Positions 32,156 through 35,210 of a stretch of DNA of 55,008 nucleotides are shown here, piece after piece (the stretch's first letter is position 1; every line of letters starts with the position of its first letter). A program made the translations under genes and the position numbers. The notes below the pieces were generated by a model, which had not been told where the DNA came from, did not search any database, and saw only the letters and a program-made list of their open reading frames with translations. Source of the DNA: an uncultured Bifidobacteriaceae bacterium (GTDB lineage: Bacteria; Verrucomicrobiota; Verrucomicrobiia; Limisphaerales; JADLHS01); NCBI GenBank assembly GCA_964456685.1, contig CAYWCK010000002.1, forward strand, positions 1-55,008. Direction: 5' to 3'.

Positions 32156-32812
32156 CTAGACGAACTTCCCCAGAAAGTCTGCCAAATTGCGCGCGGCGAA
32201 TTGCGTGCTTTTTTGCAGCCGCCGCAGGGCCGGAATTTTTCCCGGCGCTTTGGCAATGGCCCAGGCCAGTTTACCGTAATGCAGGCTGAGATCCGGATGG
32301 GCGAGTTCGTTGAAATTCAAAGGCAGGTCCTCGGTGGCGGTATCAGAAATCACCCGCACGGTGGCGCAGGAAATTCCCCGTTCGTGGCACAGTCGCGCCA
32401 CGGCGGCCGACTCCATTTCGACGGCGTCGGCCCTGGTGGCTTTTCGCAGCTCAGCCTTTTCCGCAACGGTGGTCGCGATGCGATCAGCGCAGAAAAATCG
32501 GATCGGCTTCGCCCCCAGCGCTGTGAACTGGTTTTTCCAGGAGGCGTCGGTCGTCTCGAAAACTACATCGCCCATCTTTAGTTCGGGATTCAATCCGCCC
32601 GCGAAGCCACAAGTCAGAACGGCCAGGGGAGAATGCTGCGCCAGATATTCCTTCACCACTCGTTCGGCGTTGCGTTTGCCGATGCCGGTGAGCAGAACGG
32701 AAACATGTGGTCGTCCCGCCGTGAGCGAGCGAAACGCGCGCGCTTCGTCTTCCAACGCAAAGCAGACCAGCGTGGCCGCCGGCGGCTGACCTCTGACCTC
32801 GGACCGCTCCAT
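32156..32812 (-). CDS. PNP/UDP-family nucleosidase/phosphorylase (HpnG-like or MTA/SAH nucleosidase-like)
   Basis: Motifs are ..LLTGIGKRNAE.., ..CGFAGGLNP.. and AVEMESAAVA. The ATG at 32812 overlaps the upstream stop (TGATG). Confidence 0.7.
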   Translation of the reverse strand: MERSEVRGQPPAATLVCFALEDEARAFRSLTAGRPHVSVLLTGIGKRNAERVVKEYLAQHSPLAVLTCGFAGGLNPELKMGDVVFETTDASWKNQFTALGAKPIRFFCADRIATTVAEKAELRKATRADAVEMESAAVARLCHERGISCATVRVISDTATEDLPLNFNELAHPDLSLHYGKLAWAIAKAPGKIPALRRLQKSTQFAARNLADFLGKFV

Positions 32813-33531
32813 CACTTGATCCCCGCCAGCCGTTCCTTCCACACCCGGTAAAGCTCCACGGTCGCCCGCACGTCGCGCAGGCAATACTCGGCGATGTCGC
32901 GGAACTTTCCTTCCTTCATCAAGTTCGTCACGTCCATACCGGTCACGCCATGGGCTTTGGGCGATTCAATGCCGAACGCCTTGCAATAAAAATCCAGATT
33001 GAACTTCCGCGCCGCGCCCTCGCGCCCGCTGACGCCATAGAAGGTGAATTGCTCCGCCAGATCGCAATGCGGTTCGGTGGCGTAGCGGTAGCCGAGCCAG
33101 TTCTTGCGCGAGATGGGCACATTGAGCGCCGCCGAGCGCAGGTAAAGAAACGGCACATCGAATCCGCGGCCGTTGAACGTCACAATCTCGTCGTAATGCT
33201 TCGCCACATCCCAGAAGGCTGTGAGCAGTTCGACTTCATCCGCGCACGGCACGAATTCCACCGGCCCACCTTCGGCGGCATCCTCCTCGAAGTCATCGGC
33301 TGTGAAAAGCACCTGGCCCCGCTGGGATTCGGCGTTGAGCATCGCGATGCAGACGACGTGACCCGTGAAGGGCCAGAGTGCGAACATGCGCAAGGTTTCC
33401 TCGCGTTTGGCGGCGCGGGCGGTTTCGTCAGGGATTTTTTCCACTTCGCGGAGCAGATATTCCTGCTGGACCTCGTCGAAGTTTTCGAGCGGCTGCGCGG
33501 TGGTTTCGATGTCGAAGACGAGTTTGGCCAC
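32812..33531 (-). CDS. RNase H-fold 3'-5' exonuclease (PolB-exonuclease-like)
   Basis: LVFDIETT is an ExoI motif. ..IVTFNGRGFDVPFL.. is ExoII-like. ..YCLRDVRAT.. is ExoIII-like. Confidence 0.7.
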   Translation of the reverse strand: MAKLVFDIETTAQPLENFDEVQQEYLLREVEKIPDETARAAKREETLRMFALWPFTGHVVCIAMLNAESQRGQVLFTADDFEEDAAEGGPVEFVPCADEVELLTAFWDVAKHYDEIVTFNGRGFDVPFLYLRSAALNVPISRKNWLGYRYATEPHCDLAEQFTFYGVSGREGAARKFNLDFYCKAFGIESPKAHGVTGMDVTNLMKEGKFRDIAEYCLRDVRATVELYRVWKERLAGIK

Positions 33532-33607
33532 GGCGGGACTTTAGCCGCTTACGTCGGGCAATCCACGCTAAACTTCGCGGAGCTTCTTTCCCGTCGCGTC
33601 GCAGTAC

Positions 33608-33658
33608 AAAAAAAATCAGGATGGGAAACCGACTTTCGTTCCGGCTTTCCATCCTGAT
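33608..33658 (-). terminator. intrinsic terminator (about 18-bp stem followed by T8 on the minus strand)
   Basis: The minus strand reads ATCAGGATGGAAAGCCGG-AACGAAAG-TCGGTTTCCCATCCTGAT-TTTTTTTT. It has one mismatch and two G-U pairs. Confidence 0.7.
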
Positions 33659-33670
33659 ATTTGATTGCAG

Positions 33671-33715
33671 TTACTTTTTCTTCTTCGCTGCTTTTTTCTT
33701 TTTTTTGGCTGCCAT
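33671..33715 (-). CDS. candidate 14-codon Lys-rich micro-ORF (MAAKKKKKAAKKKK)
   Basis: The minus strand reads GGAGGTGACAAAC-ATG GCA GCC AAA AAA AAG AAA AAA GCA GCG AAG AAG AAA AAG TAA. There is a strong SD 8 nt upstream. The ORF's own terminator starts 12 nt after the stop, and another terminator lies upstream. Translation is unproven. Confidence 0.4.
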   Translation of the reverse strand: MAAKKKKKAAKKKK

Positions 33716-33795
33716 GTTTGTCACCTCCGATCAGTTTTTGGTTTTGATTGCAGTGACCGTTTCGACAAATGGACGTCTGAGCTGACCGTTTGTAG

Positions 33796-33839
33796 AAGAA
33801 AAATCCGCCGGCTGGCAACAACTATTTTCCAGCCGGCGG
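33796..33839 (-). terminator. intrinsic terminator downstream of apgM
   Basis: The minus strand reads CCGCCGGCTGG-13 nt loop-CCAGCCGGCGG followed by ATTTTTCTTCT. It lies 26 nt after the apgM stop. Confidence 0.7.
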
Positions 33840-33864: not shown

Positions 33865-35088
33865 TTAGGCGCCGAATTTGTCGAACATTTTCGCGTTCGC
33901 CTGCATCAAGCGGATCAAAAATTTCGCCTCCATCACGCCGAGCGATCCGCTGTTCGCGCCGGTCTCGGTGAAGCGCTCGAGTTTGTCCGAGCCGCTCACC
34001 GCCGAGTGCAACAGCACGGGCTGCGGATGCCACGAGTGGCCCTTCAGGGCGCACGGCGTTGAGTGATCGCCGGTGATGGCCAGCACGTCCGGCCGCTTTT
34101 GGAGCAAGATGGGCAGCGCGGCGTCGAAGTCTTCGATCGCCTTTTTCTTCGCGGCAAAGTTGCCATCTTCACCCGCCTTGTCGGTGTATTTGTAGTGGAT
34201 GAAAAAGAAATCGTAGTTGTCGTATTCGGCGAGATAACGCTCGAACTGCTCGGCGATGGATTGCGGGCCTTCGATCTTTTTCATGCCCACCAGTTGAGCA
34301 AGACCCTTGTACATCGGATACACGGCGAGGCACGCAGGCTTGAGCTGGTAGCGCTCCGCGAAGAGCGGAATTTCCGGCTGATGAGCGATGCCGCGCATGA
34401 GGAAACCGTTCGCCGGCTTCTCCTTGGCGATGATCGGCAGCGCCGCCTTGTAGAAGTCCGCGATCAACTTCGCCATTTTCTTCTGCTTGGCATTCTTCGG
34501 GTCGCGCGGCCTGACGGTCGGGATGGCGAAACCTTCGCGGTTGGGATCGGCATCCGTCAACGGGCCTTCCAAACCCTTGCCGCGGAAGACCACCACGAAC
34601 CGGTGTTCCTTGCCAGCTTTGATGATGACCTGCGTATCGCCGAGCTTTTTGATTTTCGCGGCGAGCAAGGCGCAGAGTTTTTCGCAGGTCTCGGTGGGAA
34701 TGCGGCCGGCGCGGCGATCGGTGACAATTCCCTTCGCATCGAGCGTCGCAAAATTCGCGCGGGCACAAACGTCGCCCGGTTTAAGTTCCACGCCGAGACC
34801 GAGCGCCTCGATGACGCCGCGGCCGACTTGAAACTCCAACGGGTCGTAACCAAACAGTCCCAGATGTCCCGGTCCGCTGCCAGGCGTGATGCCGGGCGCG
34901 GCGGGAATCATGCGGCCCTGCGCGGAATCCTTGGAGAGTGCGTCGAGATTGGGCGTGTGCGCGGCTTCGAGCGGGGTGAGATAATTTTGTTCCTTCGTGG
35001 CGATGTCGCCGAGGCCGTCGAGTACGACCAGCGCGAGTTTCGCCTTTGTTTTCAAAGTCAGTTCCGAATAAAGAGCGTCCAGTTTCAT
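33865..35088 (-). CDS. apgM: cofactor-independent phosphoglycerate mutase, archaeal-type (ApgM family)
   Basis: Motifs are [11 protein letters not shown], ..[15 protein letters not shown].., ..ITGDHSTPC.. and H.W.PVP-like [10 protein letters not shown]. Confidence 0.9.
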
Positions 35089-35210
35089 TTTCGTTTGGTT
35101 GTTGAAAAGCCCCCGCGCGGCGCAGATGCGACCGCGTGGCAATATGCATCATGTAAGGAAAGCATTGTTGGTGCAATCCGATTCGGTGGTCGGTTCGCGC
35201 TCGACTTCCC

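Follow-up and report, generated by a model that had tools for sequence, protein, structure and literature searches.

Very small, lysine-rich basic proteins are already a known kind of gene product. HupB, with its PAKKA tail, and the Chlamydia proteins Hc1 and Hc2 are also Lys/Ala/Pro-rich and histone-H1-like, and the tiny ribosomal proteins bTHX, bL37, bS22 and eL41 are Arg- as well as Lys-rich and fixed in length and sequence. The closest described counterparts of the genetic unit analyzed here are the KPAA-type tails of AlgP and PhaF, which are Lys/Ala/Pro-rich and predicted to be disordered (PMC9239181, PMC12818456). RNA binding and activation of translation by PhaF require the lysines of its tail (PMC12818456); KPAA peptides have been shown to bind DNA, and AlgP is found in association with polyphosphate granules (PMC9239181). 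Our subject is a mini-gene for a Lys/Ala-rich peptide of 14 residues, placed on the minus strand between apgM and a gene encoding a PolB-exo-like 3'-5' exonuclease in contig CAYWCK010000002.1 (assembly GCA_964456685.1), recorded as derived from an uncultured Bifidobacteriaceae bacterium (GTDB lineage Verrucomicrobiota, Limisphaerales); the term "window" refers to the whole analyzed stretch of 55,008 nucleotides (nt). As judged by sequence comparison, the promoter, Shine-Dalgarno (SD) sequence, reading frame, composition and hairpin of this unit are conserved, and its class recurs in other phyla. It is the recurrence of this unannotated design in distant bacteria that gives the locus its above-average interest.

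Like the H1-like tails of AlgP and PhaF, the window peptide and its class are dominated by Lys and Ala (in part also Pro), nearly devoid of Arg, of low complexity and variable in the number of repeats. In the H1-like proteins, however, the repeat region is carried on a folded domain (approx. 100-350 amino acids, aa), whereas the product of the mini-gene is the tail alone (9-30 aa), its gene being equipped with a separate promoter, a perfect SD and a dedicated terminator; in addition, Pro is rare in the verrucomicrobial set.

A preliminary description of the locus had reported a strong SD, a gap of 5 nt, an ATG, a 14-codon Lys-rich open reading frame (ORF) ending in TAA, and a strong terminator with a T8 tract. 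All of these parts were found in the window, together with a promoter, at the following positions (basis in brackets):

33813-33818, minus strand: -35-like hexamer TTGCCA of the mini-gene promoter (comparison with relatives)
33789-33794, minus strand: -10-like hexamer TACAAA, after an 18-nt spacer (comparison with relatives)
33721-33728, minus strand: SD GGAGGTGA, an 8-nt perfect anti-SD match located 5 nt from the ATG
33671-33715, minus strand: mini-ORF, ATG...TAA, encoding MAAKKKKKAAKKKK (sequence and codon-level conservation)
33608-33658, minus strand: intrinsic terminator, with a 17-bp hairpin at 33658-33615 and U8 at 33615-33608 (folding and alignment)
within 33658-33615, minus strand: outer stem of the terminator, CAGGAUGG/CCAUCCUG (folding)

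Transcription of the mini-gene would start near 33782. Nine of the 13 codons following the start of MAAKKKKKAAKKKK specify Lys (residues: 9 of 14 Lys, 4 of 14 Ala), and the mature peptide, if the initiator Met is removed, would probably be AAKKKKKAAKKKK with a mass of approx. 1455.0 Da. The hairpin has a folding energy of -28.7 kcal/mol (z = -5.2; none of 200 shuffled sequences folded as well) and is immediately followed by its U-tract, the combination typical of intrinsic terminators. The patch is A/T-rich, as originally noted, with a GC content of 0.36-0.44 compared with approx. 0.6 in the surroundings. No other ORF of the window has an SD of nearly this strength, which is exceptional for this genome: GGAGGTGA occurs only twice, the second copy being within a coding region, and 30 of the 36 long ORFs lack an SD match of at least 4 nt at the start of the longest frame (a start assignment that is approximate). 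A consensus promoter scan of the locus found nothing, because the local -10 hexamer TACAAA differs from TATAAT, and a terminator scan missed the main hairpin at 33658-33615 because of an internal mismatch in the stem; both elements were identified by folding and by comparison between species. The Rfam 15 scan of the region gave only chance matches to microRNA models (15-19 bits versus thresholds of at least 70).

In order to assess conservation, the exonuclease locus was compared in 80 species-level genomes of relatives (Verrucomicrobiota, subdivision 3), with exonuclease homologues named Verrucomicrobiota, Pedosphaera or Limisphaerales. An exact-protein look-up of the exonuclease retrieved no contigs other than those of the same species, in which the spacer is identical, and is uninformative on conservation. 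In 32 of the 80 species an SD and a Lys/Ala-rich mini-ORF were present directly upstream of the exonuclease gene and on the same strand, and at a 33rd locus (L016), which is cut off, the hairpin is yet visible. The conserved module consists of a TTGCCA-N17/18-TACAA promoter, the sequence GG(A/G)GGTGA, an ATG or GTG start codon, a Lys/Ala frame of 11-27 aa and the hairpin; thus the check proposed earlier, i.e. whether relatives keep the ORF or the hairpin alone, revealed conservation of both. No second ORF of this type was detected within 3 kb on either side at any locus, nor in the 55-kb window. Considering the very low background rate of such ORFs, their recurrence at one syntenic place is not due to chance.

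The 33 frames defined by synteny constitute the valid coding test, and they contain 310 Lys codons (180 AAG and 130 AAA), with neither a single Arg codon nor a single AAC or AAT (Asn) codon. All four Ala codons (GCA, GCT, GCC, GCG) are used, the start codon is ATG in 14 and GTG in 19 frames, and the stop codon is TAA in 19 and TAG in 14. The length varies (11-27 aa) by in-frame changes only. Variation at the unambiguous N- and C-terminal codons affects third positions in approx. 10-35% of species, compared with approx. 1-3% for first and second positions, and an N-terminal MAAKKK and a C-terminal KKK(K) are retained. The peptide of the window is itself encoded, with other wobble bases, at four further loci (L019, L020, L127, L186). 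These orthologues therefore display what is expected of a small coding ORF: start, stop and frame are kept, changes are synonymous and indels are in-frame. The complete lack of AAY codons points to selection on lysine, since purine-rich A-R-N repeats would tolerate AAY, and the absence of Arg from a genome of 60% GC suggests that lysine itself, beyond positive charge, is selected. We consider it very probable, on these comparative grounds, that the mini-gene is real and translated. A different grouping, in which metagenome matches were collected by identical peptide and differed only at third positions, was discounted as circular, because the synonymy is guaranteed by the grouping.

A hairpin of -23 to -34 kcal/mol, starting approx. 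9-16 nt past the stop codon, was found in all 33 species, with one copy per locus and always 3' of the mini-ORF. RNAalifold predicted 17 pairs in a 27-sequence alignment (A1), 10 of them with compensatory changes, and the sequence of the outer stem, GGAUGG/CCAUCC, hardly varies among relatives. A U-tract (at least 4 U directly after the stem) is clear in approx. 24 of the 33 species. The sequence of the spacer between stop codon and hairpin is not conserved. At five loci (L012, L019, L020, L022, L037) the short C/U-rich spacer following the hairpin often repeats a motif of the 3' arm (UUCCAUCC, CCAUCUCC), which might form an alternative structure by pairing with the 5' arm; the window lacks this repetition.

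The mini-gene is flanked by the following genes and signals, the second gene downstream being placed after the exonuclease gene:

33865-35142, minus strand: apgM gene (Pfam PhosphMutase/Metalloenzyme)
33805-33839, minus strand: hairpin of the apgM intrinsic terminator, CCGCCGGCTGG ... CCAGCCGGCGG (sequence reading; partial match in the terminator scan)
33804-33795, minus strand: T-rich tail of the apgM hairpin (sequence reading)
32812-33531, minus strand: PolB-exo-like 3'-5' exonuclease gene, without SD (Pfam PF10108/PF13482)
32156-32884, minus strand: PNP_UDP_1 gene (Pfam)

The apgM terminator of the preliminary description is thus a real hairpin with a T-rich tail. The -35 hexamer TTGCCA lies inside the 3' arm of this terminator, whose T-rich tail at the same time forms the promoter spacer (33789-33839, minus strand), and an arrangement of hairpin arm, TTGCCAGC, T-run and TACAA recurs in relatives (e.g. 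L026, L047, L074).

The sequence TTGC(C/A)N-N17/18-TACAA(A/C) was found 73-84 nt 5' of the start codon in at least 18 of the 33 species. An alignment of the upstream region (A2) contains only three conserved islands, namely TTGC(C/A)N, the motif TACAA located 17-18 nt further on (invariant in this alignment) and GATCGGAGGTGA at the start codon. The GG(A/G)GGTGA motif is present at a spacing of 5-6 nt in all 33 species. The 5' untranslated region (UTR), i.e. the approx. 65-75 nt between the -10 hexamer and the ribosome-binding site, is not conserved in sequence, which makes a riboswitch-like leader unlikely; a structured 5' UTR was rejected as a candidate, conservation being limited to the promoter and the ribosome-binding site.

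In most relatives only approx. 25-45 nt, pyrimidine-rich and without promoter motif or SD, separate the hairpin from the ATG of the exonuclease gene. The mini-ORF is accompanied by an upstream apgM in 13 species and lacks it in 19, while six species carry apgM directly upstream of the exonuclease gene with no mini-ORF in between. Since the mini-ORF stays next to the exonuclease gene with or without apgM, the mini-gene appears to be the first cistron of an exonuclease operon in this clade. An exonuclease gene with neither promoter nor SD of its own behind the hairpin would have to be read through from the mini-gene promoter, and the anatomy of the locus thus suggests that exonuclease expression most likely depends on terminator read-through. 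The apgM-exonuclease spacer may accordingly be re-annotated as promoter, gene and terminator, with an operon downstream that is probably expressed in this way.

The mini-ORF is missing upstream of the exonuclease gene in 47 of the 80 species, although it may lie elsewhere in those genomes. In 19 of the 47 the same type of promoter was found 6-21 nt from the exonuclease ATG; a promoter motif so near to the ATG, with no SD, suggests that the exonuclease mRNA is leaderless, or nearly so, in these species. The motif at these loci (L029, L031, L034, L038, L040, L042, L043, L049, L051, L053, L055, L058, L059, L078, L080, L082, L083, L085 and L087) has the form TTGCC(A/G/C)-N17-TA(C/A)AAC and may represent the consensus of housekeeping promoters in this verrucomicrobial group. 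The spacer between terminator and exonuclease gene is approx. 55 nt longer in the window than in relatives. It includes a possible remnant of an ancestral exonuclease promoter (TTGCCC...TAAAGT), the spacing of which is too short for a standard promoter.

Mini-genes of similar design were then sought in metagenomes using the pattern GGAGGTGA, 5-6 nt, and codons for M-A-(A/T)-K-K-K, which matched at least 120 stretches; the values given here refer to the matches listed. Complete frames numbered 122, of which 111 are at most 60 aa and 91 at most 30 aa long. Beyond residue 6 their composition is 51% Lys, 23% Ala, 3% Pro and 1.7% Arg, and at least 40% Lys was found in 103 of the 111 frames. The 75 nt located downstream fold with a mean energy of -27.6 kcal/mol, compared with -20.4 kcal/mol for random segments of the same contigs (p = 1e-15), and the GC content of the contigs ranges from 0.30 to 0.71. 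The same pattern applied to viral contigs gave six matches, all of them in ordinary proteins and none with a Lys-rich mini-ORF, which indicates that the pattern does not by itself yield such ORFs.

Approximately one quarter of the matches listed are followed by a verrucomicrobial exonuclease gene (identity down to 63%), with differing hairpins. Outside this group the next gene (an ORF of at least 150 aa within 300 nt; the ORF calling was crude) is convergent in 20 cases and co-directional in 18, and units facing a convergent neighbour cannot be leaders. Tandem duplicates, each copy with its own SD and hairpin, also occur among the matches listed. Frames of 80-190 aa (e.g. L101, L137, L159, L204) have the same MAAKKK start followed by AKKK/PAKK repeats, which points to a continuum of lengths extending towards H1-like proteins.

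Several further features of these contigs may be mentioned. The tandem Lys/Ala mini-ORF pairs (L109, L191, L194, L196, L197) are located approx. 70-120 nt apart, each with its own GGAGGTGA and hairpin, and in three of these loci an aldehyde-dehydrogenase-like ORF follows approx. 450-500 nt downstream. In L154, L190 and L104 a Lys-rich N-terminal part ends in Cys motifs (...SSCRTC, ...SSCKSC), with L104 being a 54-aa form containing several CxxC pairs; these variants may represent a metal-binding subtype. A 21-aa frame, MAAKKKAGGKKKAAKKSSKKK, is found on many soil contigs of 63-68% GC (L095, L100, L106, L115, L144, L147, L149, L172, L175, L188, L189, L202) and is followed by a G+C-rich hairpin with no clear U-tract and, on several of them (e.g. 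L172, L115, L147), by a PNPOx-like gene approx. 60 nt downstream.

Two lineages outside the Verrucomicrobiota show a conserved placement of the mini-gene. On the low-GC contig L102, the SerRS of which is closest to Candidatus Levybacteria, the order is serS, mini-ORF, secA. Five further SerRS homologues (73-84% identity) were fetched regardless of the presence of a mini-ORF, and all five serS-secA spacers contained a TTGACA/TATAAT-like promoter and AAGGAGGTGA, followed by MAKKKKKKK, MAKKKKGKKKKKK or MAKKKAKKKKKKKK, and then by two hairpins, the second with a U-tract. In the Levybacteria contigs (L211-L219, L102, L091) the segments TTGGTAA..., ...TTACCAA and TTGGTAA are located directly past the stop codon, the middle one being able to pair with either neighbour; they are followed by a terminator and, within approx. 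30 nt, by secA. From their sequence, these segments look like a switch between alternative structures that would be sensitive to a terminating ribosome. In a high-GC lineage a 19-aa MATKKKAAK..KKKAAKK frame was found approx. 100 nt past ppk1 on at least four contigs (L140, L150, L162, L200), whose PPK1 proteins are 71-78% identical; this conserved placement hints at a functional link to polyphosphate.

The option that best fits all of these data is the first of three offered in the preliminary description, i.e. that of a highly expressed, extremely basic micropeptide: the frame, the start codon, the SD and the Lys/Ala composition are conserved, with wobble changes, across the 33 species, and similar units are found in other phyla. 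We regard it as moderately probable that the product is a polycationic peptide acting in trans on polyanions, produced from its own promoter, and that its terminator also throttles the exonuclease operon. This reading is based on the convergent neighbours, the tandem copies, the varied contexts, the length continuum and the analogy with H1 tails. The proposed course of events is as follows. A sigma-70-type promoter (TTGCCA-N18-TACAAA), located on the back of the apgM terminator, would start an RNA of approx. 175 nt, of which only the perfect SD, the 14-codon Lys/Ala frame and the strong intrinsic terminator are conserved. The presumably abundant product would be an oligo-lysine peptide without fixed structure, carrying a net charge of approx. 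+9 and comparable to a Lys/Ala-rich tail of histone H1, AlgP, PhaF or HupB that stands on its own. It would bind polyanions (RNA or ribosomes, DNA, or polyphosphate), and its function would depend on charge density and on lysine specifically, rather than on a fold. The SD-less exonuclease and nucleosidase genes would be transcribed by polymerases that pass the terminator, with the hairpin keeping the peptide mRNA in large excess over the exonuclease mRNA.

Several observations weigh against this interpretation. In the verrucomicrobial lineage the mini-ORF is always leader-proximal in the exonuclease operon, which fits a cis-regulatory leader as well. In approx. 9 of the 33 species the hairpin is kept despite a weak or absent U-tract and its outer stem is conserved in sequence, which suggests that it may do more than terminate transcription, possibly serving also as a stabiliser or a binding site. 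In Candidatus Levybacteria the ORF is nucleotide-identical in three lineages, a hint of constraint at the RNA level there. Binding of polyanions is deduced from composition and analogy, and a peptide of 13 aa may be rapidly degraded. Finally, low-complexity peptides are not demonstrably homologous across phyla, and the wider class may be convergent or mixed.

The alternative that survives best, although we consider it unlikely, is a cis-acting leader or attenuator, in which translation of the poly-Lys frame controls read-through into the exonuclease and nucleosidase genes and the peptide is a by-product. A ribosome positioned at the stop codon, which precedes the stem by 9-16 nt, might hinder stem closure; alternatively, stalling at the Lys codons might report the status of Lys-tRNA or of translation. 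The locus resembles the trpL, hisL and pheL attenuators and pyrBI-type coupling in having a short translated ORF rich in one codon, located before a terminator and an operon of promoterless genes. The order of promoter, SD-equipped mini-ORF, hairpin and SD-less exonuclease gene in 32 species (in 19 of them without apgM upstream), the short promoterless distance from hairpin to ATG, and the occurrence of the same promoter type close to the ATG in species without the mini-ORF are all in line with a leader. The same applies to the narrow range of stop-to-stem distances, the use of Lys only (310 Lys versus 0 Arg), as expected of a codon-specific sensor, and the Levybacteria 3' UTR segments between stop codon and secA that can pair in two ways. 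However, no antiterminator pairing was found in the fold of the window, neither the 5' UTR nor the stop-to-hairpin spacer is conserved around the ORF, and the downstream exonuclease and PNP_UDP_1 genes are unrelated to lysine metabolism. A pure codon sensor would not need the conservation of MAAKKK and the C-terminal KKKK at the peptide level. Moreover, similar units elsewhere, among the matches listed, precede a convergent gene about as often as a co-directional one, so that half of them lack a co-directional gene downstream, and tandem duplicates exist. The preliminary description had also proposed a leader for the exonuclease genes, with a slippery A8-G-A6 tract; the transcriptional linkage, by predicted read-through, stands, whereas long A-runs are not conserved, and the idea of poly-A slippage was discarded because AAG codons interrupt these runs in relatives.

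The leader interpretation also invites comparison with secM-secA of Escherichia coli, which is regulated by translation arrest. The likeness, confined to the Levybacteria loci, consists of a small ORF and a structured RNA immediately 5' of secA; in contrast to secM, these loci encode neither a SecM-like arrest motif nor a signal peptide, and a terminator lies between the ORF and secA.

It is improbable that the product is a tiny ribosomal or ribosome-associated protein, specific to this lineage and occupying a pocket in the rRNA, comparable to bTHX, bL37, bS22 and eL41. These proteins are likewise approx. 14-33 aa long, extremely basic, often unannotated and highly expressed, and the perfect SD and the separate terminator of the mini-gene would suit such a role, as would the position of the Levybacteria unit amid genes for lysyl- and seryl-tRNA synthetases and secA (a cluster for translation and secretion). 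In contrast to the fixed sequences of the ribosomal proteins, the mini-gene family is Lys-only and variable in length (11-27 aa in one family-level clade, 9-60 aa across the class), with an interior that is of low complexity and freely variable. In addition, its longer members match no NCBIfam or Pfam model, and the unit is missing upstream of the exonuclease gene in 47 of the 80 species (possibly being located elsewhere in the genome).

The third option of the preliminary description, an ORF that is incidental to a small RNA, is contradicted by the codon pattern, and we regard as highly improbable a non-coding RNA in which a purine-rich (ARN)n tract and the terminator are the functional parts (e.g. 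for binding of Hfq or S1). AAG/AAA repeats do fit A-R-N, the RNA ends in a hairpin with a U-tract, and both the conserved hairpin sequence and the identical Levybacteria ORFs are compatible with such a role. A-R-N, however, tolerates any third base, and 310 AAR codons were found versus no AAY; the SD, its spacing, the ATG or GTG and an in-frame stop are kept in all 33 species, all four third bases occur in the Ala codons, every indel is in-frame, and no Rfam family was matched. The idea of a mobile cassette that was inserted or duplicated recently, with 12-bp direct repeats resembling target-site duplications at its ends, as suggested by the exact 12-mer that occurs only twice in 55 kb and flanks the SD and ORF, is effectively refuted, because the repeat is missing from all relatives carrying the ancient unit (the closest, with 93% exonuclease identity, included), the unit with its hairpin is single-copy in the window and at every locus rather than one of many repeat copies as is usual for mobile elements, and the terminator lies outside the segment bounded by the repeats.

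Database searches are in line with an unannotated class of peptides. None of 17 family members (21-48 aa) was present in a collection of 15 billion proteins by exact-sequence look-up. Pfam and NCBIfam scans of members of 21-41 aa gave no meaningful match (the 14-aa peptide of the window is too short to be scanned), a homology search with a 41-aa member gave no match at E <= 0.001, and searches of the literature, both for small ORFs rich in lysine and for peptide strings such as MAAKKK, yielded no account of genes of this kind. We tentatively suggest that dedicated, strongly translated mini-genes for oligo-lysine peptides 9-30 residues long are present in several phyla (Verrucomicrobiota, Candidatus Levybacteria within the Patescibacteria, and two or more high-GC lineages) and that these peptides act as polycations, as a counterpart of polyamines or a free H1 tail that would tune the condensation of RNA, DNA or polyphosphate.

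If translated, such peptides would form a widespread and abundant kind of gene product that is invisible to current annotation. The AlgP study reports that trypsin undercounts lysine-dense sequences (PMC9239181); a free oligo-lysine peptide would thus be invisible to standard proteomics, since digestion would destroy it and leave fragments too short for detection. It would also be the simplest counter-ion for nucleic acid or polyphosphate that a ribosome can make, which bears on charge neutralisation, condensates and polyphosphate granules in bacteria without classical histones or with reduced genomes (candidate phyla radiation). The strict choice of lysine over arginine provides a testable biophysical clue.

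The two copies of the 12-mer, of which the preliminary description had correctly reported the positions, are placed as follows:

33743-33754, minus strand: first copy of the 12-mer ACTGCAATCAAA, in the poorly conserved 5' UTR (exact match)
33660-33671, minus strand: second copy, sharing the last base of the stop codon (exact match)

The 12-mer is absent from every relative carrying the unit and is therefore species-specific; it lies outside the conserved device. Approximately one nearby 12-mer repeat is expected by chance in a window of this kind and approx. four distinct ones were observed, one other of them in the same intergenic region, which is weak evidence for more than chance. The downstream copy includes A-rich bases that pair with the U-tract of the terminator. 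A second exact 12-mer repeat, GCTCCGCGAAGT (minus strand), was found at 33572-33583, in the spacer between terminator and exonuclease gene, and at 33443-33454, inside the exonuclease gene. Together with the longer spacer, this suggests small local duplications in this species.

A minor observation concerns the names of the records used. Among the metagenome-assembled genomes (MAGs) represented by L011, L013, L015, L017, L023, L024, L027, L040, L061, L068, L074 and L089, the taxonomy of several is apparently mislabelled: the titles of such verrucomicrobial MAG records read "uncultured Bifidobacterium sp.", "Bifidobacteriaceae" or "Klebsiella sp.", and others name Chitinophaga, Dongiaceae, Binatia or Sulfotelmatobacter.

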